A stretch of 64,000 nucleotides of DNA, from positions 36,614 to 100,613 of the forward strand of contig JBBPII010000021.1 of the NCBI GenBank assembly GCA_038040385.1. Direction: 5' to 3'. The position numbers and the translations under genes were made by a program. This stretch comes from Candidatus Gilichinskyi gelida. GTDB taxonomy: Bacteria > Acidobacteriota > Thermoanaerobaculia > Gp7-AA8. Below, piece by piece: positions 5,178-53,285 of the stretch (positions within the stretch are counted from its first letter, which is position 1; each line of letters opens with the position of its first letter). Below the pieces are notes generated by a model. It worked only from the letters and a program-made list of their open reading frames with translations. It was not told the DNA's origin and ran no database searches.

Positions 5178-5233
5178 CCAATGCAGGACGGGCTTCAGCC
5201 CGTCGTCTCGTCCGGACGGGCTGAAGCCCGTCC
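5178..5233. repeat. Family C hairpin element, tandem pair (caatgcag-GACGGGCTTCAGCCCGTC-gtctcgtcc-GGACGGGCTGAAGCCCGTCC)
   Basis: Two 18-nt perfect hairpins (7-bp stem GACGGGC/GCCCGTC, 4-nt loop) in opposite loop orientation. The M15A gene stop TGA sits in the first loop. The pair lies between the M15A and GCS2-like genes and is a possible terminator. Confidence 0.8.
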
Positions 5234-5917
5234 TACATCGTCCCCCGCGCGCCGCTCCCGCCTCCTGCGGTCCTCGAACGCGAACCGCGGACGGGCTTCC
5301 TGCGGTACTTCCATCCTGTCCTCGCTGATCTCCCGGGGGACGACTGTGATGTAGCCGAGGTCGACGTGGACATGATCGTCGGCGGTGTTGCCGGTGACGT
5401 GGCCGAACGGATAGACGACGATGTCGTCTGAGACGCCCTCGGCCACTTCGTTGAACTTCTCGATCGTGTCCTTCGTCTTCAGGATGGTCGCGCCGATGCG
5501 GTAGACGTCGGCGGCGGTGCCCCACATGTGCGGCGTGGCGTGCGTCGACATCTTGTGCATCGGCGAGCGGTAGCCGCCGTTGACGGCGACGTGCACCGAG
5601 GCGCCGGCGGCGGCGCGGAACTGCTCGAGGTAGAACGCCAGCACGCGGACGGCGCACGGGATGTAGCGGGGAAACTGCTGGAGCCGCTCCGCCTCCCGGA
5701 GGTCGACGAGGATGAATTCGTTGAGGCCGAAGTGCGGCGTCAGGCGGATGGCCTGCGCCGCTTCGTGCGACGGTACTTCGTAGAAGTATCGCGGGAGGCG
5801 ATGGCGGCGTTTCTGTTCGTCGAGCAGCATTTCGCCCGGTTTGAGGAGGGTGCGCAGCTCGTCGTCGAGGTCGCAGGCGTCGATCACTTTGATCGACTCG
5901 CCAAGGCCGTCACTCAT
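5195..5917 (-). CDS. peptidase M15A-like (YcbK/DUF882 or VanY-type Zn D,D-peptidase fold) protein
   Basis: NGGYRSPMHK...STHATPHMWGTAADV...DHVHVDLGY corresponds to the SGYRS / SxHxxGxAxD / HxH zinc-ligand motifs. There is no signal peptide. The low-complexity tail runs into a hairpin repeat. Confidence 0.55.
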   Translation of the reverse strand: MSDGLGESIKVIDACDLDDELRTLLKPGEMLLDEQKRRHRLPRYFYEVPSHEAAQAIRLTPHFGLNEFILVDLREAERLQQFPRYIPCAVRVLAFYLEQFRAAAGASVHVAVNGGYRSPMHKMSTHATPHMWGTAADVYRIGATILKTKDTIEKFNEVAEGVSDDIVVYPFGHVTGNTADDHVHVDLGYITVVPREISEDRMEVPQEARPRFAFEDRRRRERRAGDDVGRASARPDETTG

Positions 5918-14081: not shown

Positions 14082-15588
14082 GCAAGAGAGATTCTAAGAC
14101 GAAGACGGCGGCCACCGCGCCGAGGTGAATGAGGCGCAGCGCAAGAAGATGCGACGCGAATGGCCCTACCGCCACGTGCGACAGATCGGCGGTGAAAGGG
14201 GCGTGCCATGGGCCCCAGCGAAACAGCCACCAGCCCGTGGCGGGAGAGGTGAGGCCGGCGAAGTCGTGAAAAAGCGCCCCTTCGTGGATGATCACGTCCC
14301 ATCCCACCAGCCAGCCGGCGGTGATCGCGATCGGCGTCATGGGAAAGAGCGTCGCCACAATTAGCGGCGCCAAGGCGTACCAGAACCACCCCTCCTTCCC
14401 CGCCGCCGGCAGCGCCAGGCCCATGGCGCGGGCGCGGCGGATGTACCCGCCGGCGTGGACGACCTGCGCGACGGTGAAGGCGGCCAGGCCGGCGAGCGGA
14501 AACAGCGCCAGCCGGCGCTGCTTCGAGCGCAGCACGCCGAAGACGATCAGCGCGAGCAGCGGCACGGCGTAGAGCAGCATGCCTCGCAGCGTCAGCGCAT
14601 TCCAGTGCTGCCCGCTGGTCCACACCGCGCTGGCGAGCGTCACCTTCACCATCTCGAAGTAGCGGATCGGCTGCGGCACTCCGGTGGTTGCCGCGGGGTC
14701 GAAGCCGAGGACGCCGAGGGGATTGTGCGTGCGCAGGGCGAGGTCGGCGATGGTGATGGCGATCGAGATCGCGCAGGCGATCGCGACGGTGATCACGCGG
14801 AGGCGCGGAGTACGTTGACGGATCCAGAACAGCAGCAGGATCACCAGCGCGGGCCAGGTGTAGAGCTTGGTCGCCAGCGCCAGCGCCCAGAAGAGCGCGG
14901 CACGCCATGTCGATCCGGCGAACGTGCATGCCAGCGCCAGCGCGAGGAGCATGCAGGCGAAGGCGTCGTTGCTTGCGCGCGCCACGAGCGTCAGCCACGT
15001 CGGGAGCGACACCAGCAGCGCCGCCGCCGCGATCCCGCGCATCCCGAAAAACGTCTCGCCGATGCGCGCGGTCGCCAGCACGATGACCGCGGCGAAGAGG
15101 ATGGACAGCATGCGCCAGAAGCGCAGCTCCGCGAGCTGCGTGCGATGAATGAGGCGCCCGAGGCGCCCGGCGATCGAGTAGTAGAGCCGCGGCTGCTGCG
15201 CCTCGATGTTGGAGCGGAGATAGTTGGCGGTCGTGGCGTGATCGACCACCACCGCGCGCCTGCGGACCACCTCCGGCCAACCGGCGTCGACGTGTCCGAA
15301 GTCGGCCGGGTACGCCGGATCTCCCGCCGTCGCCGAGGCGAGATACTGCGCCACGGAGGGTTCGCGGATGTCGGGATTGCGCCCCTCCTGCAGCACGAAC
15401 ACCAGCCGCGCCACGTGCCACACCTCGTCCAGCCCCGCGTACGGCGGCAGCGCCGCCACCTGCAGCATCAGGCGGGCCAGGGCGGCGGCGGCGACCAGCG
15501 CGTACAGCACGATCCGCGCGACGTCATCCTGAGCCGCGAAGACGGCGAAGGATCTCGGCCTACGCAACCTGAGATCCTTCCCCTTCAC
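14053..15588 (-). CDS. polytopic membrane protein, GT-C/ArnT-like glycosyltransferase fold (hypothetical)
   Basis: About 12 predicted TM segments and an aromatic-rich N-terminal region. The first ~20 codons (MKGKDLRLRRPRSFAVFAAQDD) are encoded by repeat element A1, so the true start is probably an internal GTG near 15513. Confidence 0.45.
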   Translation of the reverse strand: MKGKDLRLRRPRSFAVFAAQDDVARIVLYALVAAAALARLMLQVAALPPYAGLDEVWHVARLVFVLQEGRNPDIREPSVAQYLASATAGDPAYPADFGHVDAGWPEVVRRRAVVVDHATTANYLRSNIEAQQPRLYYSIAGRLGRLIHRTQLAELRFWRMLSILFAAVIVLATARIGETFFGMRGIAAAALLVSLPTWLTLVARASNDAFACMLLALALACTFAGSTWRAALFWALALATKLYTWPALVILLLFWIRQRTPRLRVITVAIACAISIAITIADLALRTHNPLGVLGFDPAATTGVPQPIRYFEMVKVTLASAVWTSGQHWNALTLRGMLLYAVPLLALIVFGVLRSKQRRLALFPLAGLAAFTVAQVVHAGGYIRRARAMGLALPAAGKEGWFWYALAPLIVATLFPMTPIAITAGWLVGWDVIIHEGALFHDFAGLTSPATGWWLFRWGPWHAPFTADLSHVAVGPFASHLLALRLIHLGAVAAVFVLESLLHDRNAHPPG

Positions 15589-15609
15589 TTCGTTCAGGGT
15601 CAGGATGAC
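15523..15609. repeat. Family A nested-hairpin REP/MITE-like element, copy A1
   Basis: gtcatcctgagc-cgcgaagacggc-gaaggatctc-ggcctacgcaacct-gagatccttc-...-gggtcaggatgac. Outer stem GTCATCCTGA/TCAGGATGAC; inner stem GAAGGATCTC/GAGATCCTTC. Confidence 0.8.
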
Positions 15610-16879
15610 GAGTATTTTTCATGTCGCATTAATATCATCGGTTATAATCGCGCTCATCGTTCCCGCCGATACCGCCTGGCTCCTGGTCGCCACCGCGCTG
15701 GTGCTCATGATGACCCCGGCCCTCGGATTCTTCTACGGCGGGATGGTCCGCGCCAAGAACGCTCTCAACACTTTGATGATGAGCTTCTCCGCGCTCGGCT
15801 TCGTCGGATTGGCGTGGGCCTTCTTCGGCTACTCCTTCGCCTTCGGCCGCGGATCGCAGTATTTCCTGCTGCGCGGCGTCGGCCTCGAGGCGAAAGGGAC
15901 GATCCCGCACCTCCTCTTCTTCGCCTACCAGGGAACGTTCGCCGTCATCACCGCCGCGCTGATCTCCGGCGCGATCGTGGAGCGGATGCGCTTCGGCCCG
16001 TACGTGGTCTTCATCACCATCTGGTCGCTGGCGGTCTACGCGCCGGTCGCGCACTGGGTGTGGGGCGGCGGCTGGATCGCCAACCTCGGCGCGCTCGACT
16101 TCGCCGGCGGCACGGTGGTGCACGTGAACGCCGCGGCCGCGGCGATGGTCTGCGCGGTGGTGGTCGGAGCCCGGAAGGACTACGCGCGCCAGGCCATCCT
16201 GCCGCAGAACGTACCGTTCACGCTCCTCGGCGCGGGACTGCTGTGGCTCGGTTGGTTCGGATTCAACGCCGGGTCCGCGCTGGCAGCGAACGGCATCGCC
16301 GCGCTGGCCTTCGTCAACACCATGCTGGCGCCGACGGCGACGTTGGTGGTCTGGACGATGCTCGACCTGATGCGCACGCGCAAGGCCACCGCGATCGGCG
16401 CGGCGACGGGCATCGTGGTCGGCCTGGTGGCCATCACCCCCGCCGCGGGATTCATCAGTCCGCGATTCGCCATCGTGCTCGGCGCGATCGCCGCGGTGCC
16501 GAGCTACTTCGCGCTGCTCTACCGGGCGAAGACTCGCCTCGACGACTCGCTCGACGTCGTCGCCGCGCATGGCGTCGGCGGCATCGTCGGCGCGCTGCTC
16601 ACCGGCGTCTTCGCCTCGAAGCAGTGGAACCCCGGCGGCGCCGACGGCCTCCTCGCCGGCAACGCGCGGCAGCTCGGCGTCCAAGCCATCGCCATCCTGG
16701 CCACGCTCGTCTACAGCGGCGTGGTGACGTTCATCATCGTGAAGCTCGTCGGCGTGGTGATGGCGCTGCGCACCAACACCCGCGACGAAGGCCTCGGCCT
16801 CGACGTCACGCAACACGGCGAGGAGGCGTACAGCAGGGGTGAGGGGGCCATTCTCGTGCTCGACGGGAGGAGCGATTGA
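15605..16879 (+). CDS. amtB: ammonium transporter
   Basis: DTAWLLVATALVLMMTPALGFFYGGMVR...YQGTFAVITAALISGAIVERM...GTVVHVNAAAAA. The hydrophobic, AT-rich signal-peptide-like N-terminus MTSIFHVALISSVIIALIVPA precedes the conserved TM1. Confidence 0.9.
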   Translation: MTSIFHVALISSVIIALIVPADTAWLLVATALVLMMTPALGFFYGGMVRAKNALNTLMMSFSALGFVGLAWAFFGYSFAFGRGSQYFLLRGVGLEAKGTIPHLLFFAYQGTFAVITAALISGAIVERMRFGPYVVFITIWSLAVYAPVAHWVWGGGWIANLGALDFAGGTVVHVNAAAAAMVCAVVVGARKDYARQAILPQNVPFTLLGAGLLWLGWFGFNAGSALAANGIAALAFVNTMLAPTATLVVWTMLDLMRTRKATAIGAATGIVVGLVAITPAAGFISPRFAIVLGAIAAVPSYFALLYRAKTRLDDSLDVVAAHGVGGIVGALLTGVFASKQWNPGGADGLLAGNARQLGVQAIAILATLVYSGVVTFIIVKLVGVVMALRTNTRDEGLGLDVTQHGEEAYSRGEGAILVLDGRSD

Positions 16880-16884
16880 CCACG

Positions 16885-16971
16885 TTTATCCTGAGCGCGA
16901 AGGGCGAAGGATCTGCCGCCCACTTGCGCAGCGCATATAGGCGCCAGATCCCTCGCTTCGCTCGGGATAAA
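16885..16971. repeat. Family A element, copy A2 (TTTATCCTGA subtype), exactly filling the amtB-glnK spacer
   Basis: gtttatcctgagcgcgaagggcgaaggatctg-ccgcccacttgcgcagcgcatataggcgc-cagatccctcgcttcgctcgggataaa. Confidence 0.8.
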
Positions 16972-16985
16972 TTAGTGAGGAGCGA

Positions 16986-17348
16986 ATGAAACTCGTCGTC
17001 GCCATCATCCGGCCCGACCGCCTCGGCAACGTGCTCGAGGAGTTGTTCCGCGCGAAGATCGCCGGCCTCACCATCAGCCGCGTGCAGGGGCACGGCGGCG
17101 AGACCGAGCGCGTGGAGACCTATCGCGGCACGACGGTCAAGATGGAGCTGACCGAGAAAGTGCGCATCGAGATCGGCGTCTCCGATCACTTCGTCGATCC
17201 GACCATCGACGCCATCATCGCCGGCGCGCGCACCGGCGACGTCGGCGACGGAAAGATCTTCGTGATGCCGGTGGAGCGCGTGGTGCGGATCCGGACCGGG
17301 GAGACGGACCGCGCGGCGGTGACGCCGGTGGGAGTCGCGCCGGATTGA
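16986..17348 (+). CDS. glnK: nitrogen regulatory protein P-II
   Basis: MKLVVAIIRPDRLGNVLEEL...GLTISRVQGHGGETERVETYRGT (T-loop)...GDGKIFVMPVERVVRIRTGE. RBS GAGGAG. It has an 8-aa C-terminal extension. Confidence 0.85.
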   Translation: MKLVVAIIRPDRLGNVLEELFRAKIAGLTISRVQGHGGETERVETYRGTTVKMELTEKVRIEIGVSDHFVDPTIDAIIAGARTGDVGDGKIFVMPVERVVRIRTGETDRAAVTPVGVAPD

Positions 17349-20730: not shown

Positions 20731-21264
20731 ATGAGAGCACTGGTCATCGCCGTGATTCTCCTCACCGCCTGCTACGCCGCCTCGGATTCGCAGTTCACTG
20801 ATCTCGCCAACTCCGCGCGGGCTGGCGATGTCGCGAAGATCCGGGAGCTCGCCGCGGAAGGCGCCGATCCCAACGCCGTCGCAGGCCAGAACAACTGGAC
20901 GCCGCTGCTCCACGCAATCCACAAGCATCAAAACGCCTCGGTCACCGCGCTCCTCGGCGCCGGCGCCGACGTCAACCGCGCCGGCCATGACGGCGTCACC
21001 CCGCTGATGATGGCCGCCGGCTACGGCTTCGACGACACCGTGCAACTCCTGCTGAAGCGCGGCGCGAACGCATCGCTCAAAGGCAGCGAAGAGGGATCGG
21101 CCCTCGACTGGGCGCTCCTCGGCACGACGGACATCGACCGCTTCACCTACTTCACCTGCCAGGACTCCACCGTTCGCCTGCTGCGCAGCGCCGCGCCGAC
21201 CCTGCAGCCGACGGCCGGCGCGCGGCGCTGGGCGAAGATGAAGCGCTGCGCTACGTCATCCTGA
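20731..21264 (+). CDS. ankyrin-repeat lipoprotein
   Basis: Lipobox MRALVIAVILLTAC. ANK repeats: NWTPLLHAIHKHQNASVTALLGAGADVN...GVTPLMMAAGYGFDDTVQLLLKRGA. Its stop codon lies inside repeat A3. Confidence 0.7.
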   Translation: MRALVIAVILLTACYAASDSQFTDLANSARAGDVAKIRELAAEGADPNAVAGQNNWTPLLHAIHKHQNASVTALLGAGADVNRAGHDGVTPLMMAAGYGFDDTVQLLLKRGANASLKGSEEGSALDWALLGTTDIDRFTYFTCQDSTVRLLRSAAPTLQPTAGARRWAKMKRCATSS

Positions 21265-21330
21265 GCGGAGCGAAGGATCTCAGTCTGCGCAGCCGGAGAT
21301 CCTTCGCCGTCTGCGCGGCTCAGGATGACG
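21254..21330. repeat. Family A element, copy A3, between convergent ankyrin and qor genes
   Basis: cgtcatcctgagcggagcgaaggatctc-agtctgcgcagccg-gagatccttcgccgtctgcgcggctcaggatgacg. Both genes' stop codons (TGA within ..cgTCATCCTGA) lie in the outer stem. Confidence 0.85.
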
Positions 21331-22294
21331 GGGAAACCCGCAGCACGATCTTCCCGAAATTCTCGTTCGCCGCCATCCGGCGGTGCGCCTCGGCCGCCTC
21401 TTCCAGCGGATAGACGCGGTCGATGACGGGCCGCACGCGGCCGGCGCGGAGGTGGTCGTCGAATCGCCCGAGAAACGACGCGACGATCGCCGCCTTCTCC
21501 TCGTTCGATCGCGAGCGTAGCGCGGAGCCGATGATCTGCTGCCGCCGCCCGAGGAGCTTCGCGACGTCGATCTCCGCGCGCGTCTCGCCGCCCATCGAGC
21601 CGATGATCACCACCCGCCCGCCCGCCGCCAGCGCCTCGAGATCGCGTACGAGGTAGCGCGCGCCGATATGGTCGAGGATCACGTTCGCGCCGCGGGCGCG
21701 CTCCACGAAGTCCTCTTCGCGGTAGTTGATCGCGTCGTCCGCGCCGTGCGCCAGGCAGCGGTCGCACTTCTCCTTCGATCCTGCGGTGACGATCACCCTC
21801 AAGCCGGCGAGCTTGCCGAGCGTCGTCGCCGCGGTGCCGACGCCGCTGCCACCGCCGTGCACCAGCAGCGTCTCACCCGCCGCCGCCCGCGCCAGGTCGA
21901 ACACGTTGGAAAACGCGGTGAGAAATACCTCGGGGAAGGCGCCCGCCTCGTCGTCGCTCAGCGCGTCCGGCACGCGCATCGTCGATCCGTGATGCGCCAC
22001 CGCCTCCTCGGCGTAGCCGCCGCCGGGAAGGAGGGCCATGGCCCGCTCGCCGGTTTTCCATCCGCGGACGTCGGCGCCGACCTCGATCACCTCGCCGGCG
22101 CACTCCAGGCCGAGGATCGTCGACGCGCCGGGCGGCGGCGGATAGCGCCCTTCGCGCTGGAGCAAATCCGCGCGATTGACGGCGGTGGCACGCACGCGAA
22201 TGCGCAACTGGTCGGGGGCGAGCAGCGGCGGATCGACGTCGCCGATCCGCAGGACGGACTCATCGCCGGGGTGATCGAAGACGATCGCTTTCAT
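21320..22294 (-). CDS. qor: NADPH:quinone oxidoreductase (MDR superfamily)
   Basis: MKAIVFD...GLECAGEV...LVHGGGSGVGTAATTLGKLAG (Rossmann)...KIVLRV. Its stop codon lies inside repeat A3. Confidence 0.85.
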   Translation of the reverse strand: MKAIVFDHPGDESVLRIGDVDPPLLAPDQLRIRVRATAVNRADLLQREGRYPPPPGASTILGLECAGEVIEVGADVRGWKTGERAMALLPGGGYAEEAVAHHGSTMRVPDALSDDEAGAFPEVFLTAFSNVFDLARAAAGETLLVHGGGSGVGTAATTLGKLAGLRVIVTAGSKEKCDRCLAHGADDAINYREEDFVERARGANVILDHIGARYLVRDLEALAAGGRVVIIGSMGGETRAEIDVAKLLGRRQQIIGSALRSRSNEEKAAIVASFLGRFDDHLRAGRVRPVIDRVYPLEEAAEAHRRMAANENFGKIVLRVSPSS

Positions 22295-28232: not shown

Positions 28233-28290
28233 CAGTGTAGCGGCGCTCGCTTCGGGCGCCGGCGGCCGAAGCGGCCGCCGCTACACGTCT
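28233..28290. repeat. Family D hairpin element, copy D1 (coordinates approximate)
   Basis: gtgtagcggcgctcgcttcgggcgccggcggccgaagcggccgccgctacac: 11-bp outer stem GTGTAGCGGCG/CGCCGCTACAC with inner GC-rich stems. Confidence 0.7.
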
Positions 28291-28646
28291 TACGCACTAG
28301 GTATGAACTCCTCGTCGCCCTGCTGCTCGCGCTCCCATGTGAGGAACTCGTAGTAGCCGCACGTCGGGAACTCCGGGTACGACTTGCAGACGGCCGGACG
28401 CGCCTCGTACACCGTGCACCGGCGGGTCTTCAGGTCGAGGAACATGCAGGCGGTGTCGTAGATCTCGTCCTTCTTGTGCCGGAGGACCACTTCCCCGTCG
28501 ACGACCTTGGTGTAACGCTGCTCTGCGATCTCCAGGTCGACGCCGAAGTGCTTCGCCAGCCGGCTCAGGTCGCGCTTGGTAACGGCGATCGAATCGTAGC
28601 TGCAGCAGTACGCCGGGCACTTCGAGCAGTCGTAGCGGATTCGCAT
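28290..28646 (-). CDS. YkgJ-family CxxCxxCC putative Fe-S/zinc-binding protein
   Basis: [15 protein letters not shown]...[25 protein letters not shown]. The track ORF extends further N-terminally, to 28796. Confidence 0.6.
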
Positions 28647-28852
28647 CCATGCAGTGTAGATGCGAACAGCGAGCCCGGCGGCATCCACCGTGCTCAGCAA
28701 ACGTTGCGCATGGATCGACCGGCGGTGCTGCGAGCCGTCGTCGGGCGGCTCGGGGATCTCCTCGACCGCGGCGCCGCGCGGCGGCGCTGCGAGCAAGGGA
28801 TCGAGGTGGTGTCGCTCGAGCCGCGAGCGCGGAGGCCGCGGCGGCGGAAGTA

Positions 28853-28908
28853 GTGTAGCGGCGGCCGCTTCGGCCGCCGGCGCCCGGGAGCGGGCGCCGC
28901 TACACAGT
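28853..28908. repeat. Family D hairpin element, copy D2 (inverted relative to D1; coordinates approximate)
   Basis: gtgtagcggcggccgcttcggccgccggcgcccgggagcgggcgccgctacac is the near-exact reverse complement of D1. Confidence 0.7.
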
Positions 28909-35950: not shown

Positions 35951-36727
35951 ATGGCCGCCGAGCAGCCTGCCGACCTGCACATCCCCCCAAAGCCGCGCGA
36001 GGCACTCGAGGACCGCAAGCTCCTCGACCGCCCCAGCCGCGACGAGATGCTGCAGAGCGAGTCGTGGCGGGTGCTGCGCATCACCAGCGAGTTCGTGGCC
36101 GGCATCGACCACCTCACCGGCGTTTATCCGGCGGTGTCCATCTTTGGCTCGGCGCGGACGCAGCTCTCCAATCGCTACTACGCCGAGGCGGTGAAGACCG
36201 CCGAGCTGATCGGCCGCGCCGGATTCGCCATCATCACCGGCGGCGGCCCCGGCATCATGGAAGCCGCCAACCAGGGCGCCAAGCGCGCCGGCGCGCTGTC
36301 GATCGGCTGCAACATCGAGCTGCCGTTCGAGCAGCGCATCAATCCGTACGTCGACCGCTCCATGACCTTCCGCTACTTCTTCGTCCGGAAGACGATGTTC
36401 ATCAAGTACTCCGAGGCCTTCATTACCTTCCCAGGCGGCTTCGGCACGCTCGACGAGCTGATGGGCGCGCTCACGCTGATCCAGACCAAGAAGATCACCA
36501 ACTTCCCGGTGATCCTCTACGGCAGCGAATACTGGGCCGGGATGATCGAGTGGATGCGCAAGACCGTGCTGGCCGAGAACAACATCAAGCAGGAGGACGT
36601 CGACAGCATTCACATGGTCGACGATCCGGAGAAGGTGCGCGACATCGTGGTGGCCTTTCACGATCAGGCCATGCGGAGCAACGGGGATGAGGGGGATGCG
36701 CGCCCAAGCGCGGCGCGGTCCGATTAG
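35951..36727 (+). CDS. LOG-family cytokinin riboside 5'-monophosphate phosphoribohydrolase-like protein (TIGR00730)
   Basis: SIFGSAR...IITGGGPGIMEAANQGA...PGGFGTLDEL. Confidence 0.85.
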   Translation: MAAEQPADLHIPPKPREALEDRKLLDRPSRDEMLQSESWRVLRITSEFVAGIDHLTGVYPAVSIFGSARTQLSNRYYAEAVKTAELIGRAGFAIITGGGPGIMEAANQGAKRAGALSIGCNIELPFEQRINPYVDRSMTFRYFFVRKTMFIKYSEAFITFPGGFGTLDELMGALTLIQTKKITNFPVILYGSEYWAGMIEWMRKTVLAENNIKQEDVDSIHMVDDPEKVRDIVVAFHDQAMRSNGDEGDARPSAARSD

Positions 36728-46370: not shown

Positions 46371-47991
46371 GCCGCAGCGCCACGATCTCGCCGCGGTGTA
46401 ATCCGAGAAAGCTTCTGAAGGGATAGCGCCCGACGACGGTGTACCCATCGAGCGGGCGAAAGGCGATCGCGTATGCGCGAGGCGGATGGCCGCGCCGCGC
46501 GACGGCGACCGGCGCGTCGGCCAGTTCGTAGAAGCCGAACGCCTCCGCGCCGCCGTCGATCTGCGCCGCCGCCACGCCGCGCGCGCGCAGATCGTGGAAC
46601 GCCGTCCACCGCGCGCGCTGCCAGCGGAAGTACTCCTGCACCGACAGCGTGGAGAAGACGGCGATGGCGATCAGCCCGGCGGCGGCGATTCCCCGCGCCA
46701 GCCGTTTCTGCCACGGCACGATCAGCGGCAGAGCGATCCCCACCGCCCACGCCGAGTCGAGCGAGTAGCGATCGTAGTAGTAGCCGGACGCGAAGAGCGC
46801 GAGAGTGCCCAGCGCCGCGGTGAGGATCGCCAGGCGAAGAGCGATGCTCCCCGCGGCGAAGACGCGGATCAGCGCCCACACCAGCAGCGTCGCCAGAAGG
46901 GCGCTGAGAACGGTGAGGACGATGCGGCCGGCGGTGCCCAGTCCGAACGGATACGGCAGCCCCAAATTGAAGGTGTCGAAGAGAAGCGGCGTGCCGATGC
47001 CGAAGTCGAAGAGGATGTTGCCCGGCAAGATGTCGGAGTAGAGCGACCGCGTGGTGTATGGCACGAAGTAGCCGGCGCGCGCCAGATCGAAGACCCGGAA
47101 GCCGACCACGCCGGCGATGATCGCCAGCGGCACCGCATCACGCATGCGCAGGCGGGCCAGGAGGACGACCAGCGCGGCGCTCAGCGGCAGAAAGAAGAGC
47201 GCGCAGTTCTGCGCGTTGAAGATGACGTAATGATCGAGGACCGAGATCTGCTGGGGAAGCCGGAAGCTCGACTCCTGCCACATCCGGTAGTGCACGGCGA
47301 ACATCTTCGGCGTGCCGCTCAGCCACGCCGGCTTCAGCAGCCACACCATGCCGAACAGCGCGACGAATGCGGCGATCACCGCGGCGAACGACCGCCAGCG
47401 CGGCGGCCGGTACATCAGGAGCAGAAGGAACGGCGCGCCGAGCAGGTAGAGGCCGTTCTGGCGCACGAAACAGGCCACAGCCACCGCCGCGCAGCCGGCG
47501 ACGAGCCACGACATCCGCTCCTCCTGCAGCGCGCGGACGAAGAAGTAGAACGCCACGGCCGAGGCGAACACGAACGGGACGTCGGTCATGTAGGTGCACG
47601 ACGCCCAGAGGAAGATCGGATGAAACAGCAGGGTGAGCGTGGCGAACATCCGCACGCCGCGCGCCGCGCCGGCGCGGGCCAGGGTGCGGTCGACGATCAG
47701 CAGCGTCGCCAACGAGAGCGTCAGCGTCGAGGCGCGCAGCACGTTGAACGACTCGCCGAACACCCACGTCCACGCCGCGCCCCACAAGACCTGCGCGCGC
47801 AGCGAAACGGCGGTGAACTCGGTGAAGTGAAAGTGCCCCGTCCGCGCGAAGTTCAAGGTGGCGATGGCGAAGTCCCAGTCGTCGTGCAGCGGGAAGTCGC
47901 CGCGCGGCGAGACGACGGCGATGGCCGCGGCCCACACGGCGGCGATGAGCGCGAGCTCACGTTTATCCTGATGCCGAGCGGAGCGAGGCAT
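46351..47991 (-). CDS. GT-C-fold membrane glycosyltransferase-like protein (PMT/ArnT/DUF2142-like)
   Basis: About 12 TM segments. The ATG start (cat at 47989-47991) and first ~10 codons lie within repeat A4, overlapping the upstream yfhO stop (ATGA). Confidence 0.5.
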
Positions 47992-48058
47992 CAGGATCTG
48001 GTGCCCACCTGCGCACGTGGGCGCCAGATGCTCCGGCGCTTCGCGCCGAAGCATAAAC
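47961..48058. repeat. Family A element, copy A4 (TTTATCCTGA subtype)
   Basis: gtttatcctgatgccgagcggagcgaggcatcaggatctg-gtgcccacctgcgcacgtgggcgc-cagatgctccggcgcttcgcgccgaagcataaac. It contains the yfhO-1 stop and the start of the downstream GT-C gene. Confidence 0.75.
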
Positions 48059-50402
48059 TCAAGACGGCCGCAATTGACGCGGCCAGCCCAAGATAGAACG
48101 TCAGCGGGAAGTAGTGAACGCGGACGTCCCACTCTCCCGGCGGCACGGTGAAGCCGAGGAACGGGCCGTTGACCGGCTGCGGCGCGACGCGGCGGCCGTT
48201 GCGCGTCACCCGCCACCCCGGCCACCACGGCTGGCTGCTGACGATCAGCGCGTGGCGCGGCGCGCGGATGTGGAGGAGGAAGTCGGTCGGATTCGCCTCC
48301 ACGATCGTCACCGACGGCTCCGGCGCCGTGAGCGGACGCGGGAGGAGGAGGTCGAGGCGCATCCGGTCGCTGTCGACCAGCAGGGTCTTCACCACCGCGG
48401 TCCGCGAGAAATCCTTCTGAGCGACCAGTCGCTGCACGAAGCGATCGCCCTTGAACTCCAGCACGATGTTGCGCGCGGGATAGAAGCGCGGCAGGACGTC
48501 GGTGTTCTCGAAGATGCGGCCGTCGCGGCCGTCGTAGACCAGGTGGAAGCGCTGCGGGTCGCGCATCTCCAGGTTGTGCGCGCCGACGACGTACTTCACG
48601 TTGAGGTAGTCGAGCAGCCGCGAGTCGAGGTCGTTCCACTTGGCGAAGTAGTCGTCGGTATTGACGTTTGCCATCAGCCGCAGCGCGCCGAGGTAGCGGC
48701 CGTTGGCCATCGGATCGTGCGCCCGGACGTCCTCGAAGCCGTAGATGGCATTGGTGTTCGGAAACAGCGCCGGCCCAATGCCGATGACCCGTGTAGGGGC
48801 GCCCGCTCCGGGCGCCCGCAGCTCAGCGAGTTTGTCGATCAGCGGCGTGCGTGGATACATCGCGCTCGCCGGGAGAACCGGATTCCACCCCGCGGCGGCC
48901 GCCCACAGCTCGCCGACGACCGCCGTGGCGAGCACACACGCGCCGAGATCGCGCCAGCGCACCGGCAGCGCGAGTAGCGCCGCAGCGGCCAGGGTGATGA
49001 TGCTCGGGAACATCGCCAGCATCGCCATGTCCACCGCCGCCTGCGTCGGAAACGCCGTGGTCATCACCAGATAGAGGAGGCCCGCGCCGGTGATGCCGAC
49101 CCCCGTCAGCAGCCAGACCGGGCGCTCGCGGCGGGTGATGTCGACGATCGCCGCCGCCATCAACGCGATGACGAAACAGAACAGCAGGCGCAGGCGCGCG
49201 TTCGCCGCCAGGCGGAAGACGAAGTGGAAGAACGACCCGACGCCCGGCCAGTCGAGGATGACGGCGAGCACGAACAGCGCGGCGACGACGAAGAAGAACT
49301 CGCGGTCGCGGAAGCGCCGCAAGGCGATGGCGCGCAGCAGCAGCGCGAACCAGGCCGCGACGCCGAGCGCGCCGGCGAAGCCGCTGATCGACTCCGCGGC
49401 CGGCGCGGTGCTCCACGGCTTGTCCGCCGGCAGATGACCGAAGAAGTGCGGCTGGAAGAGCACGATCATCGACGGGAAGTCGGAGAAGGGGACGTCGACG
49501 TTGAGCTGCGGATTGGCCTTTAGCTCCTGGTATCTTTTCGACTTGGTCACTGCCTCGGCGAAGGTCGCCAGGAACGGCGCGGCGACGATGGCGGCCACGG
49601 CGATGGCGCCGGCCAGCGCGCCGATCGCGCGCCACCCACCTTTCCGCTCCACGAGCACGATCCATAGTCCAAACAGCCCGCAGAGCAGCGTGACGTGCGA
49701 GACGGTCTCCGGGTGTCCGCCGAACAGCATCACCGCCCACACCACGACGGCGAAGACGAAGCGCGCGTATGTGCGCCGCTCGAAGAGGAGGTCGACGGCG
49801 AGCATGGCCGCCGGCAGCCAGACGCCGACGGTGACCAGCGGAAAGTGCAGCCATGTATTGTTGAACGTGCAGAAGGCGAAGCAGATCGCGCCGACGGCGC
49901 TCGGCAGCTCGGCGTACCGCCGCCGGCCCAGCAGGTACATGAACGTCAGCGCGATCAGCAGCTTCATCGCCGCCTCGGCGGTCATCGAGTAGCCGAGCGG
50001 CAGCGGCAGCGCGAGGAGGCGAATCGGCGACAGCGCCGAGCTCTGACCGTTCGCCAGCAGCGGGTAACCGGCTCCGGAGAGGTGGTTCCACAGCGGGAAG
50101 TGCAGCGAGCGCCACGACGCGCGAACCTGGTGGGCCCACGGTACGATCTGCATCGGCAGGTCGTTCATGATCGGATTCGAGGGATGCGGCCGCGCCCCCA
50201 CTTCGCTCCACGGCGGCAGGATGCGGACGAAGTCGACCGGGACGTTGACCGCGTCCTGGGTCATGGGGCGGAAGAGGAACAGAAGCACCAGAACGTAGAA
50301 GAACGCGGCGACGCCCCACGGCAGATCGACGCCCCGCTTCCGCGCGAGCCAGACGGCCAGCGCGTAGAGCGCGGCGACGTACAGCCAGGTGGGGTTAAAC
50401 AC
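47991..50402 (-). CDS. YfhO-family membrane protein, paralogue 1
   Basis: Long polytopic protein homologous along its whole length to the upstream paralogue: ...NPTWLYVAALYALAVWLARKRG...PMQIVPWAHQVRASW...PFLATFAEAV.... The inferred GTG start at 50402 overlaps paralogue 2's stop (GTGTTTAA). The YfhO family assignment is from memory of its size and topology. Confidence 0.65.
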   Translation of the reverse strand: MFNPTWLYVAALYALAVWLARKRGVDLPWGVAAFFYVLVLLFLFRPMTQDAVNVPVDFVRILPPWSEVGARPHPSNPIMNDLPMQIVPWAHQVRASWRSLHFPLWNHLSGAGYPLLANGQSSALSPIRLLALPLPLGYSMTAEAAMKLLIALTFMYLLGRRRYAELPSAVGAICFAFCTFNNTWLHFPLVTVGVWLPAAMLAVDLLFERRTYARFVFAVVVWAVMLFGGHPETVSHVTLLCGLFGLWIVLVERKGGWRAIGALAGAIAVAAIVAAPFLATFAEAVTKSKRYQELKANPQLNVDVPFSDFPSMIVLFQPHFFGHLPADKPWSTAPAAESISGFAGALGVAAWFALLLRAIALRRFRDREFFFVVAALFVLAVILDWPGVGSFFHFVFRLAANARLRLLFCFVIALMAAAIVDITRRERPVWLLTGVGITGAGLLYLVMTTAFPTQAAVDMAMLAMFPSIITLAAAALLALPVRWRDLGACVLATAVVGELWAAAAGWNPVLPASAMYPRTPLIDKLAELRAPGAGAPTRVIGIGPALFPNTNAIYGFEDVRAHDPMANGRYLGALRLMANVNTDDYFAKWNDLDSRLLDYLNVKYVVGAHNLEMRDPQRFHLVYDGRDGRIFENTDVLPRFYPARNIVLEFKGDRFVQRLVAQKDFSRTAVVKTLLVDSDRMRLDLLLPRPLTAPEPSVTIVEANPTDFLLHIRAPRHALIVSSQPWWPGWRVTRNGRRVAPQPVNGPFLGFTVPPGEWDVRVHYFPLTFYLGLAASIAAVLSLCFGAKRRSIWRPRAQVGTRS

Positions 50403-52533
50403 GGGCGCGGATGATATACGCCGCCAGCGCGAGAGCCGTGGCCAGCGCGACGGCGAACGCGGCGTAGATGTGCAGCGGACGATAGCGGACGCGGACGACG
50501 TGATGTCCGGCGGGGACGTCGAACTCAACGAACGGAGCGCCGGCGTCCCGCCGGCTGGCCAGGCGGCGTCCCGCCGCCGCGGGCGGGGACGCCCGCGAGC
50601 CAGCCGGCGAGGACGCCGGCGCTCCACTCACTTGCCACCCCCGCGCCCACCCGACCGTGCTCATGATCCGCGCGGGTTTCGCGGCGTCGATGACGAGCGT
50701 GTAATCGGTCGGCGTAGCTATAGTAACGGTTACTATAGCGCCATCGGAGTAGAACCGCGGCTTGGCGTTCCGGTTCTCGTAAAGGCGTCCGTCGGGACCG
50801 TCGTAGCGAAGAACGTACGGCGCATCGCGTCCCGGCTCGGTTAGAACCCAGCGGAAGTCCTTCGCCTCGGTCCACTTCACGTAGTAGTCGTTCGCGTTCA
50901 GACCCATGGCCTGGACGTAGCGCGCCGGCACCATCGGGTCGTGGAAGCGAACGTCCTCGATGCCGAAGATGACGTTGGTATTCGGGAAGAGCACCGGGCC
51001 TATGCCCACCACCTGCCCGCGCACTTTTGTCACCGCATCGATGAGCGGCGTGCGCGGATAGAACGTGCTCGCCGAGCGGACGGGATTCCATCCGATGGTG
51101 ACCGCGCAGATCTCGACCGTCACCGCCAGGAGAACGAGCATCGGCGCGAACCGCCAGCGGAAGAACATCGCCGTGGCGACGACGAGTGCGATCGCGCTCG
51201 GCACGGCGCCGGCGAAGCCGAAGTGCCGGCCGACGTACAGCAGCACCGCCGCCCCGAACGCCAGCCCCACGCCGAGCGCGACACTCCGAACGCGCTCGAC
51301 CAGCGCCGCCGTGAGCACGGCCAGCATGAACGCGAGGAGAAACCGAAGGCGCATATTCGCGGCGAGGCCGAAGACGACGTCCGCCACGCGCGTCGCCGGA
51401 TGCCAATTGGCTAGCACCAGAAAGACGAACAGCGACGCGGCGACGAAGAAGAGCTCCGCGCGATTTCGTTTGCGAACCGAGTCGATGGCCACCGCCAGCC
51501 ACGCCGCGATCCCCAGGATCCCGGCGAAGCCGGTGATCGACTCCGCGCCGGCGGGGTTCTGGCGGCCGAACAGCCGCGGCTGCGCCAGCAGCGCCAGCGA
51601 CGGGAAGTCGGAGAACGGCACCTCGCGGCTCCACTGCTTCACCTGCTGGTAGCGATACGACTGCGGGATGGCCTCCCCCATCGCCACCAGCAGCGGCAGC
51701 GCAAGCAACACAGCGACCATCGCCGCCGCGGCAAATCGCCCCAGCGACCGCGGATGCATCACCAGCGCGTAGAGCGCCGCGAATGCTGCGATGTGCAGCC
51801 CGGTCTCCGGATGCCCGCCGAAGACCACCAGCGCTCCGGTCACCGCCATGAACGCGAATCGCGCAGGTGCCTGCCCTGAGCGAAGCCGAAGGGTCCGCGT
51901 CTCCGCGAGCAGGTCGATCGCATACAGCACCGCCGGCAGGAACACCGCGGTCGTGGCGATGGCGAAGTGCAGCCAGACGATGACGAACGGCCCGAAGCCG
52001 AAGCAGATCGCCGCCAGCACGCTCGGCACGACGCCGTATCCGCGTCGGCGGCAGTAGAGAAAGGTGAAGGTGAGCGCGATGAGGATCTTCATCGCCCCTT
52101 CCGCCGTGATGGCGTACTTCAGCGGCAGCGGCAGCGCGAGCATCCGCAGCGACGAGAGCGCCTGCGCCTGCCCGTTGCCGAGGAGCGTGTAGCCGCAGCC
52201 GGTCAGCTCGTTCCACAGCGGCAGCCGGCCGTGGCGCCACGCCTCGCGCACCTGGTGCATCCACGGCACGAGCTGCATCGGCACGTCCTGGGTCTCGAAG
52301 TTCGAGACCTGGTACTTCGTGAATCCCGGCGCGCTCGCCGACCACGGCGGGATGAGCTTCGGGACGTCGGTGGCGATGTTGACGAAGTCGCCGGTCATCG
52401 GCCGGAAGAGGAAGGCGACCGTGAGGACGTAGAAGAGCAGCGCCACGCGCCGCGGCAGCTCGACGCCGCCGCGCCGCGCCAGCCACACCGCCAGGGCGCA
52501 CAGCGCGCCAACGTACAGCCAGGTGACGTTCAT
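50395..52533 (-). CDS. YfhO-family membrane protein, paralogue 2 (carries an in-frame repeat-B insertion near its C-terminus)
   Basis: The start is MNVTWLYVGALCALAVWLARRGG (cat at 52531-52533). Relative to paralogue 1, the C-terminal region gains ~28 aa (APASSPAGSRASPPAAAGRRLASRRDAG) encoded by repeat B2. Confidence 0.65.
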   Translation of the reverse strand: MNVTWLYVGALCALAVWLARRGGVELPRRVALLFYVLTVAFLFRPMTGDFVNIATDVPKLIPPWSASAPGFTKYQVSNFETQDVPMQLVPWMHQVREAWRHGRLPLWNELTGCGYTLLGNGQAQALSSLRMLALPLPLKYAITAEGAMKILIALTFTFLYCRRRGYGVVPSVLAAICFGFGPFVIVWLHFAIATTAVFLPAVLYAIDLLAETRTLRLRSGQAPARFAFMAVTGALVVFGGHPETGLHIAAFAALYALVMHPRSLGRFAAAAMVAVLLALPLLVAMGEAIPQSYRYQQVKQWSREVPFSDFPSLALLAQPRLFGRQNPAGAESITGFAGILGIAAWLAVAIDSVRKRNRAELFFVAASLFVFLVLANWHPATRVADVVFGLAANMRLRFLLAFMLAVLTAALVERVRSVALGVGLAFGAAVLLYVGRHFGFAGAVPSAIALVVATAMFFRWRFAPMLVLLAVTVEICAVTIGWNPVRSASTFYPRTPLIDAVTKVRGQVVGIGPVLFPNTNVIFGIEDVRFHDPMVPARYVQAMGLNANDYYVKWTEAKDFRWVLTEPGRDAPYVLRYDGPDGRLYENRNAKPRFYSDGAIVTVTIATPTDYTLVIDAAKPARIMSTVGWARGWQVSGAPASSPAGSRASPPAAAGRRLASRRDAGAPFVEFDVPAGHHVVRVRYRPLHIYAAFAVALATALALAAYIIRARV
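50538..50630. repeat. Family B element, copy B2, inserted in frame in yfhO paralogue 2
   Basis: gcgccggcgtcccgccggctggccaggcggcgtcccgccgccgcgggcggggacgcccgcgagccagccggcgaggacgccggcgctccac. Confidence 0.75.
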
Positions 52534-53285
52534 GACAGGCGGCGGACCAGCGCCTTCGCGCGCGCGAACGCGTCGGCGTCGCCGTCGAGGATGGCGCGCG
52601 CCGCGTCCATCAGCGCGTCGAGGTGCGGCGCGATGTTCTCGCGGTTCGCCGCCAGCACCGGCATCCACACCGCCGCGTCGCTTTCGGCTAAGCGGAGGAA
52701 GGTCTTCAATCCGCTCCCGGCGAATCGCTCCAGGCCGCCGCGCTCGCCGATGACCGTAGCGAGTGCCGTCGACAACACCTGTGGCAGGTGGCTGGTCAGC
52801 GCCACCGCGCGGTCATGCTCTTCGGCCGAGACACGCTCGGAGCGCGCCCCGCATGCGTCGATGATGTCGGCGACCAGTTGCTCATCGCGGTCGACGAACC
52901 ACGGCTTCCCCACGAACAAATCACCGCGCGCTGCGACCAGACCGCGGCGCTCGGAGCCGGCCAGGGGATGCCCCGCTACAAACGAGACGTGACTGGCGTC
53001 CGCCACCGCGCGCAGCGGCCCCATCACGCTGCAGACGGAAGTCAATGTAGGACGGGCTTCAGCCCGTCGAACCACATCAACAGCCGCATCGACCGGCATC
53101 GCCAGAATCACGACGTCCGCGCCTTGGCGATCGTCGTCATCCGCAGCGCCCGCGGCGCGCGCCTCGTCCAGCGCGACGTTCGGGTCGTCGAAGCTGACGC
53201 GCCAGCCCGCGCGGCGCAGCGCGATGCCAATCGATCCTCCGATGAGGCCCAAACCGGCGATCAGCGCATGCCGCGCGGTGGGCAT
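52530..53285 (-). CDS. tyrA: prephenate dehydrogenase
   Basis: ALIAGLGLIGGSIGIAL (NAD-binding)...VVILAMPVDA...SVCSVMGPL...FVAGHPLAGSE. It contains the repeat-C hairpin in frame. Confidence 0.8.
   Translation of the reverse strand: MPTARHALIAGLGLIGGSIGIALRRAGWRVSFDDPNVALDEARAAGAADDDDRQGADVVILAMPVDAAVDVVRRAEARPTLTSVCSVMGPLRAVADASHVSFVAGHPLAGSERRGLVAARGDLFVGKPWFVDRDEQLVADIIDACGARSERVSAEEHDRAVALTSHLPQVLSTALATVIGERGGLERFAGSGLKTFLRLAESDAAVWMPVLAANRENIAPHLDALMDAARAILDGDADAFARAKALVRRLS
53042..53068. repeat. Family C hairpin, single copy inside tyrA coding sequence
   Basis: tcaatgtagGACGGGCTTCAGCCCGTCg is 26/27 identical to 5178-5204. It is read in frame as ...RRAEARPTLT... in TyrA. Confidence 0.75.

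Follow-up and report, generated by a model that had tools for sequence, protein, structure and literature searches.

Hairpin-repeat dimers inserted at gene junctions of Candidatus Gilichinskyi gelida modify the ends of open reading frames and probably belong to the CGTC-REP/Ssn-related kind

Four copies of one hairpin element, here called family A, abut or enter open reading frames (ORFs) in a 64-kb stretch of Candidatus Gilichinskyi gelida DNA (positions 36,614 to 100,613 of contig JBBPII010000021.1, assembly GCA_038040385.1; hereafter the window). Some of these ORFs take their stop or start codons from the element, and an initial annotation proposed that the elements are bidirectional terminators or attenuators. 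The locus raises the question of whether the host keeps these hairpins as signals at its gene ends, or whether they came to the gene ends by insertion. The evidence presented below favours insertion: the four elements are probably non-autonomous dimers resembling REPINs, of the pan-bacterial hairpin repeats described as CGTC-tagged repetitive extragenic palindromes (CGTC-REPs) or Ssn-related motifs (SRMs), which have inserted at gene junctions and whose cognate Ssn-type nuclease would be encoded elsewhere in the genome.

An nhmmer profile built from the four copies recovered exactly these four in the window (E 4e-17 to 2e-22), the next-best match having an E value of 0.65. The count of the initial annotation is therefore complete, and the interval 21254-21330 with which it was concerned comprises the two half-sites of copy A3. 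The copies are as follows.

15519 to 15614: A1, with half-sites at 15522-15556 (left) and 15571-15610 (right); nhmmer E 1.9e-22.
16880 to 16975: A2, located after the amtB stop and before the glnK start, with half-sites at 16883-16915 (left) and 16945-16971 (right); nhmmer E 7e-21.
21251 to 21334: A3, with half-sites at 21254-21281 (left) and 21296-21330 (right); nhmmer E 3.7e-17.
47958 to 48060: A4, with half-sites at 47960-48000 (left, 11-bp stem) and 48025-48058 (right, 12-bp stem); nhmmer E 1.8e-20.

Each element is a head-out pair of inverted hairpin half-sites of about 30-40 nucleotides (nt) around a variable spacer of 14-29 nt. The half-sites follow the formula (C)GTC-AT(C)CT-GA-[apex, often GCGNAGC]-GA-AG(G)AT-C, with the GCGNAGC apex in 4 of the 8 and the C directly after the palindrome conserved in all 8. 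Head and tail distinguish two sub-types of element, CGTCAT with ATCTC in A1 and A3 versus CGTTTAT with ATCTG in A2 and A4. The GTC-AT...AT-C layout is thus present in the half-sites of A1 and A3, whereas those of A2 and A4 have TTT where GTC is expected.

Five contigs syntenic with the window were found by means of the window's proteins, L203 and L204 for the amtB region and L205, L206 and L207 for the region of the yfhO-like and GT39 genes. In nucleotide sequence, L203 and L204 are 88.8% and 89.4% identical to the window (AmtB, 93% at the amino acid level), and each site there lies between the same genes as in the window; L205, L206 and L207 are 89.5%, 90.5% and 82.0% identical. A4 is present in L206, and no family-A element occurs in L203, L204, L205 or L207. 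The BLAST alignments break at the elements (15509|15613, 16858-16879|16984, 21250|21336 and 47958|48070), and the genes at the element-free sites have native ends reading KRCAAA*, KIVLRVS*, MKNKRVLLY… and MRDSAPRQTAIE… (asterisk, stop). Furthermore, a short-read contig of the same strain (L121) begins inside A2 and ends inside A3, which fits a repeat with many genomic copies. On this comparison of filled and empty sites, the four copies are recent insertions at junctions with little or no intergenic DNA. Since the syntenic relatives lacking the elements keep other, native gene ends, the terminal codons of six ORFs are, by the same comparison, replaced or extended by the insertions.

The insertions left no general target-site duplication. 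In 158 distinct dimers, taken from the fetched loci of many genomes, the direct repeats on the flanks do not exceed those of shuffled controls in length, and none was found at A1, A3 or A4. Because these dimers match the controls, a 13-bp duplication at A2 (see below) is an exception and not a signature of the family.

A3 takes up the entire space between two convergent genes, for an ankyrin-repeat protein and a Zn-dependent oxidoreductase. Both ORFs stop at the TGA of TCATCCTGA, one in each arm of the element:

21262 to 21264, plus strand: TGA stop of the ankyrin-repeat gene, in the left head of A3 (ACG TCA TCC TGA, ending ...TSS*).
21320 to 21322, minus strand: TGA stop of the Zn-dependent oxidoreductase gene, in the right head of A3 (CCG TCA TCC TGA, ending ...PSS*).

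The ankyrin-repeat protein ends in ...KRCATSS* in the window versus the native ...KRCAAA* in L204, and the oxidoreductase in ...KIVLRVSPSS* versus ...KIVLRVS* in L203. The coding regions of this pair share 23 nt in L204.

A4 separates two co-directional genes, yfhO-like and GT39, which overlap by 37-40 nt in L205 and L207. In the window their ends meet within the element:

47989 to 47993, minus strand: TGATG overlap in the left half-site of A4, made up of the yfhO-like stop (47993-47991) and the GT39 ATG (47991-47989).

In both the window and L206, A4 encodes the C-terminal ~20 residues of the yfhO-like protein (FGAKRRSIWRPRAQVGTRS*) as well as the N-terminal 11 of GT39; the native GT39 N-terminus is MRDSAPRQTAIE in L205 and MRRRDQVE in L207. 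The native N-terminal GT39 codons of L205 (2657-2692, ATGCGTGATTCCGCTCCGCGCCAGACC) resemble a decayed right half-site (GATTCTTCGCTCCGCTCAGAATGAC), which may mean that the coding sequence there had taken up an earlier insertion. Beside A4, the region 48600-52600 contains direct repeats of 90-180 nt with 70-74% identity, at intervals of about 2.1-2.2 kb (such as 50229-50407 paired with 52363-52541, or 48665-48789 paired with 50889-51013), a pattern that points to tandem paralogous genes for yfhO-like/GT-C membrane proteins. We also considered whether the TGA and ATG of the head are an adaptation for landing at gene junctions; 2 of the 4 ORFs entering an element stop at the head TGA, against an expectation of 1 in 3, and the idea was set aside as having no support in this sample.

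A2 separates amtB from glnK. In L204, the closest element-free relative, the amtB TGA and the glnK TTG overlap as TTGA with no spacer. In the window, A2 lies between two direct repeats, so that each gene has its own copy of the junction:

16867 to 16879, plus strand: left 13-bp direct repeat GAGGAGCGATTGA, holding a Shine-Dalgarno sequence and the amtB stop.
16977 to 16989, plus strand: right 13-bp direct repeat GAGGAGCGAATGA, identical to the left copy at 12 of 13 positions and holding a Shine-Dalgarno sequence and the glnK ATG.

At the corresponding junction of L203 (9162-9237, equivalent to window 16880-16985) there is an unrelated AT-rich palindrome, GAATTTCGAATTTCGA...TCGAAATTTGAAATTCGAAATTC. 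With A2 in the window, another palindrome in L203 and no spacer in L204, the amtB-glnK junction seems, from these three sequences, to be a repeated landing site.

A1 lies in a divergent promoter region, between amtB and a gene for a membrane protein, and is inserted after codon 3 (inside codon 4) of the latter. Four codons matter here:

15605 to 15607, plus strand: ATG in the right arm of A1 (CAGGATGACG), the first in-frame start of the amtB ORF but probably not the real one.
15647 to 15649, plus strand: ATC at the position where AmtB orthologues have their start codon (M/V/L), a candidate for the true amtB start.
15586 to 15588, minus strand: GTG inside A1, the sole in-frame start that joins the element to the coding sequence of the membrane protein; the next in-frame start is the GTG at 15510.
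15620 to 15622, minus strand: ATG, the native start of the membrane-protein gene, now separated from its coding sequence by A1.

From its native ATG the membrane-protein gene reads MKNKRVLLYALVA... in L203 and L204, whereas in the window the same ATG leads into a dead end of 20 residues, MKNTRHPDPERSEGEGSQVA*, running into A1. The body of the gene can be reached in the window only from the GTG at 15588, in A1, or from that at 15510, beyond it. When the ORF is opened mechanically at 15588, its first 23 codons lie within A1.

The ATG that A1 offers to amtB is most likely a mis-extension, to judge from orthologue alignment and codon composition. The homologues begin 7 codons before the D of DTAW, which corresponds to the ATC at 15647, and the 14 added codons (2-15) have a GC content at third positions (GC3) of 0.29, versus 0.93 for the remaining gene. 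The ATG is not ancestral either, because L203 and L204 have the same AT-rich leader without an in-frame ATG. No canonical in-frame amtB start was found between the ATG of the divergent gene and the first transmembrane segment in the window, in L203 or in L204, and translation may truly begin at a non-canonical codon. The leader itself (15611-15656) has 30% GC and contains TATAAT at 15642-15647; taken together, these features hint at a non-canonical start codon or an atypical 5' end. The closest AmtB homologue (P0001) also carries an MTSIFH... extension.

The gene-end relationships described in the initial annotation thus hold for all three elements concerned: the stem of A3 supplies both TGA stops and both proteins end in ..SS*, one arm of A1 holds the annotated amtB ATG, A1 also contains the first codons of the membrane protein (put there at about 20), and A4 contains the yfhO-like stop together with the ATG of the next gene. 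Its warning that the elements overlap or mis-extend ORF ends, and that starts and stops next to them need care, is likewise borne out by the non-ancestral residues and the composition of the amtB extension. As to whether termini in repeat-free orthologues match the element-encoded residues, the relatives show other, native ends.

The elements had been described as nested hairpins, a view that is only partly upheld. As single strands, whole elements do fold into long hairpins far more stable than shuffled sequences (z -4.7 to -7.7), and as RNA they reach -46 to -63 kcal/mol on both strands. As DNA, all 8 half-sites share one fold, consisting of a 5-bp stem beginning with A-T and T-A (ATCCT/AGGAT), a 2x2 GA/GA internal loop, a short GC stem and an apex loop of 3 nt or longer. 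The upper stem extends 2-4 bp beyond the GA/GA loop (A4 stems, 11-12 bp), and the apex loops have 3 or 6-11 nt. The GA/GA positions may form sheared pairs, and the GCGNAGC apex has the sequence of the "mini-hairpin DNA" motif, for which exceptional stability has been described (PMC13037366). Folded singly as DNA, only the two half-sites of A4 are more stable than shuffles (z -4.1 and -3.6).

It is covariation that tells the two structures apart. In 212 half-sites from loci selected by protein similarity, stem position 3 is complementary in 165, versus 77.6 expected, and the pairs used are T-A (91), C-G (61) and G-C (12). In the window, six stems are ATCCT/AGGAT, one is ATCCC/GGGAT (A2 right) and one ATGCT/AGCAT (A4 right); both of the latter changes preserve pairing inside the half-site while weakening that between the left and right arms. 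Complementarity between the arms at variable positions is at or below expectation, so that covariation for the long nested hairpin is weak or absent. Since the covariation lies within half-sites and not between arms, the constrained unit is, on this pattern of substitutions, the half-site hairpin and not the long nested one; the pattern supports two separate half-site hairpins.

The half-site is not confined to this lineage. Species-representative genomes were scanned with the pattern TCATCCTGAGC-N(3-20)-GCGAAGGATCT, which has 22 specified bases taken from the left half-site, and matches were found in at least 120 stretches from at least ten phyla. Those among the matches listed include Acidobacteriota, Chloroflexota, Bacillota, Bacteroidota, Omnitrophota, Planctomycetota, Gemmatimonadota, Cyanobacteria, the candidate phyla radiation (CPR) and several classes of Proteobacteria. 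The head of copies elsewhere is mostly TGTC or CGTC. The long half-site type of A1 and A3 (GAGCCGCGAAGACGGCGAAGG) was seen only in Thermoanaerobaculia contigs, and the nearest homologues of the window's AmtB and GT39 likewise carry that class name. On plasmids, the consensus dimer matched a single half-site in each of three Planktothrix agardhii plasmids (NZ_LR882964.1, NZ_LR882951.1 and AP017994.1), where the half-sites underlie genes annotated as MmeI-type and BREX PglX methyltransferases and a hypothetical protein; among phage records it had no match. Rfam contained no matching family, either at the gathering threshold or at E<=1, and a literature search for the sequence strings and their typical translations returned only unrelated primer matches.

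We found that the half-sites elsewhere often accompany a small nuclease gene. In L094, L063, L007 and L061, ORFs of ~95 amino acids (aa) with a GIY-YIG domain lie directly beside or between half-sites; the proteins have 93-97 aa and this single domain (PF01541, E 4e-18 to 5e-15). The association was assessed in 80 metagenome loci chosen by similarity of the GIY-YIG protein alone, without use of the DNA motif; they represent the best matches to a single protein clade. Allowing up to 2 substitutions, a 12-mer resembling GTCATCCTGAGC was present within 250 bp of the gene upstream in 66 of the 80 loci and downstream in 71, with 60 loci having it on both flanks, against a background of 0.49 per kb elsewhere in the same loci and ~0.075 per kb by chance. 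The commonest arrangement, a head-out half-site on the left, the gene and a head-out half-site on the right, accounted for 27 of 81, and whole dimers beside the gene were also frequent. Close homologues of the repeat-linked protein form at least ~8000 clusters, mostly on contigs of ~1 kb (P0241-P0360), which suggests that assemblies routinely break in the flanking repeats.

The nearest characterized enzyme is SsnA of Neisseria meningitidis, a 94-aa single-domain GIY-YIG protein that binds the hairpin repeat NTS (CGTCATTCCCGCGMAVGCGGGAATCYRG) only as single-stranded DNA (ssDNA) and cuts it a few nt upstream (Chenal et al. 2025, PMC11893778). For cutting, the three bases that precede the palindrome are important, and for binding the C that directly follows it (PMC11893778). 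SsnA homologues in many phyla are flanked by their own SRMs (PMC11893778). As a proxy for assignment to CDD family cd10448, to which the Ssn-type partners belong, the GIY-YIG protein accompanying the half-sites was compared with that of L116, whose gene has near-consensus NTS repeats on its flanks; the two are 47% identical (E 6e-27).

How the elements would have spread can be outlined by analogy with SsnA. Each half-site would be recognised, on ssDNA, by a cognate Ssn-type nuclease whose gene would lie elsewhere in the genome, and this enzyme would drive or maintain the spread of the repeat, paralleling RAYTs and REPINs; the two sub-types would answer to two nuclease specificities. Effects on termination, attenuation or translation would then be side effects, and an incidental effect of the hairpins on transcription may exist.

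Several observations weigh against the reading of the elements as nuclease-dependent repeats. No GIY-YIG gene was found in the 64-kb window, and no Thermoanaerobaculia name appears among the best 120 GIY-YIG homologues, none of which ties such a protein to this genome or class. The association with the gene, established in one protein clade, may be weaker elsewhere in the family. The published SRM pattern, HGTCWYN(0-2)YYVSBRHN(0-5)WNVSBRGN(0-2)RNCYNB, has 0 matches in the window on either strand, and the GTTTAT heads of A2 and A4 differ from the GTC that is important for SsnA cleavage. By nearest-neighbour DNA energies, 6 of the 8 half-sites fold no better than shuffles, and because of this the case for the hairpin rests on covariation. 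Finally, we know of no demonstration that Ssn nucleases mobilise repeats, the published function being restriction of transforming ssDNA.

Three alternatives were considered. The view that the host retains the elements as bidirectional intrinsic terminators or attenuators, with ORF ends overlapping them secondarily, would agree with the stability of their RNA hairpins on both strands, with the position of A3 exactly between convergent genes, and with the tendency of REP-type repeats to lie between convergent or co-directional ORFs, near 3' ends (PMC3733652). However, no T/U tract follows any of the stems, a terminator scan called 0 of the 4 elements, and only one of the four (A3) is at the end of a transcription unit, A1 lying in the 5' codons of a gene and A2 and A4 splitting pairs of genes that overlap in relatives. 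Relatives with ~89% nucleotide identity do without the elements at all four sites, covariation favours the half-site hairpins over the long stem, and the same sequence recurs in at least ten phyla adjoining a nuclease gene. The proposal of the initial annotation is thus contradicted on each of these counts, and we regard it as very unlikely.

A host-serving role of another kind, as proposed for the Neisseria NTS, would make the elements ssDNA tags at which an Ssn nuclease cuts incoming or exposed ssDNA and so modulates recombination or transformation at marked genes. An arrangement of NTS, gene and NTS around membrane-protein genes, as well as an effect of SsnA on transformation, has been published for Neisseria (PMC11893778), and in the window A1 and A2 stand on either side of amtB, likewise a membrane-protein gene. 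This gene is, however, the only bracketed one in the window, and the variable presence of the elements between close relatives, together with the damage to gene ends (A1 parts a gene from its start codon), looks like selfish insertion; we consider such a role unlikely, though a serious alternative. Classical MITEs (miniature inverted-repeat transposable elements), deletion derivatives of insertion sequences (IS) with a DDE transposase, would have terminal inverted repeats and target-site duplications. The inverted-repeat-like ends and the 13-bp repeat around A2 recall them, but the flanks of the 158 dimers do not differ from shuffled controls, A1, A3 and A4 have no duplication, and the accompanying gene encodes a GIY-YIG nuclease and not a transposase, which makes this origin extremely improbable.

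The interpretation as REPIN-like dimers of the CGTC-REP/SRM kind may be carried one step further. Head-out dimers and the GIY-YIG gene could together represent a distinct and very widespread class of ssDNA mobile element, in which the nuclease would play the part of the Y1 transposase of REPINs and IS200/IS605; this is, in our view, possible but rather doubtful. If it were true, the window and its relatives would provide the first pairs of filled and empty sites for the class, showing that copies land at gene junctions, as a rule without duplicating the target, and that their head sequence (TCATCCTGA or TCAGGATGA) donates TGA or ATG.

The main value of these data lies in a well-documented annotation hazard and in the evidence for mobility of the repeat. 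Gene callers will continue to add element-derived residues (...SS* tails and MT... heads) to real proteins and to call small spurious ORFs from the repeat in many phyla; comparisons of filled and empty sites pinpoint the residues that are not ancestral. Published work on Ssn and SRMs could only suggest behaviour like that of insertion sequences (PMC11893778), and four dated differences in presence between genomes of ~89% identity are direct evidence for movement of such repeats. The SRM kind is also extended to a half-site that the published pattern misses, and published counts of Ssn-linked repeats are probably underestimates. In this organism the elements may matter for expression of amtB-glnK and the glycosyltransferase cluster.

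Family A has company in the window. Another hairpin repeat, GGACGGGCT(G/T)(A/C)AGCCCGTC(C/G), occurs at 5186-5205, 5214-5233 and 53050-53069 (3 copies versus 0.01 expected), and adjoins TACA/TGTA at 5215-5247 and 53036-53068, which gives it a GTAG-type head. From its sequence it looks like a classical GTAG-REP (RAYT-type) family coexisting with family A. In addition, inverted repeats of 43 nt with 93% complementarity, containing TGTAGCGGCGGCCGCTTCGGCCGCCG (a GTAG head and GC hairpin), lie at ~28236-28295 and 28844-28886 around a stretch of ~550 nt (28296-28843).

Compared with known systems, family A is a new sequence family within a known kind, that of CGTC-REPs and Ssn-related repeats, and REPs that modify ORF ends have been described before. 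With the SRMs (NTS/dRS3) it shares an oriented hairpin with a GTC head, a palindrome starting with AT and a C right after it, the occurrence of many copies outside genes or at their edges, and the ~95-aa single-domain GIY-YIG gene flanked on one or both sides by the repeat in many phyla. SRMs have a perfect stem of 8 bp and a 4-nt loop, whereas in the window the stem is interrupted by a tandem GA/GA internal loop and its apex varies; the window repeats occur only as head-out dimers and without a nuclease gene in the window.

Di Nocera et al. (2013) grouped dRS3, RPE-4 and RPE-6 (Rickettsia) and others as CGTC-tagged REPs, with stems starting with AT, a 3-bp tail, a mostly inverted dimeric arrangement and no associated enzyme found (PMC3733652). 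REPs often abut or overlap ORFs and their termini can supply stop codons (PMC3733652). Family A resembles them in its CGTC or TGTC head, its A-T and T-A first pairs, its short tail, its inverted dimers (4 of 4 copies in the window) that can fold separately or as one long hairpin, and its copies abutting or entering ORFs. The CGTC tag itself is present in A1 and A3, whereas A2 and A4 deviate from it (CGTT). The four families described in that paper combine a perfect stem of 8-9 bp with a 4-5-nt loop, and none fits the stem and loop of the window copies; the stop donation reported there is by GTAG REPs, which provide TAG, whereas the window copies provide TGA from TCATCCTGA.

The REPIN/RAYT system (Bertels and Rainey 2011, PMC3116915) is similar in having two inverted hairpins and a spacer as one non-autonomous unit, a single-copy enzyme gene among the repeats and polymorphism between close relatives, but it combines a GTAG head with a Y1 (HUH) transposase, in place of the CGTC-type head and GIY-YIG nuclease considered here. 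The Rickettsia palindromic elements, finally, are likewise palindromic repeats tolerated in protein-coding genes, to which they add residues; those insertions are mostly internal and in frame, whereas the copies in the window stand at the termini of genes and supply their stops or starts.

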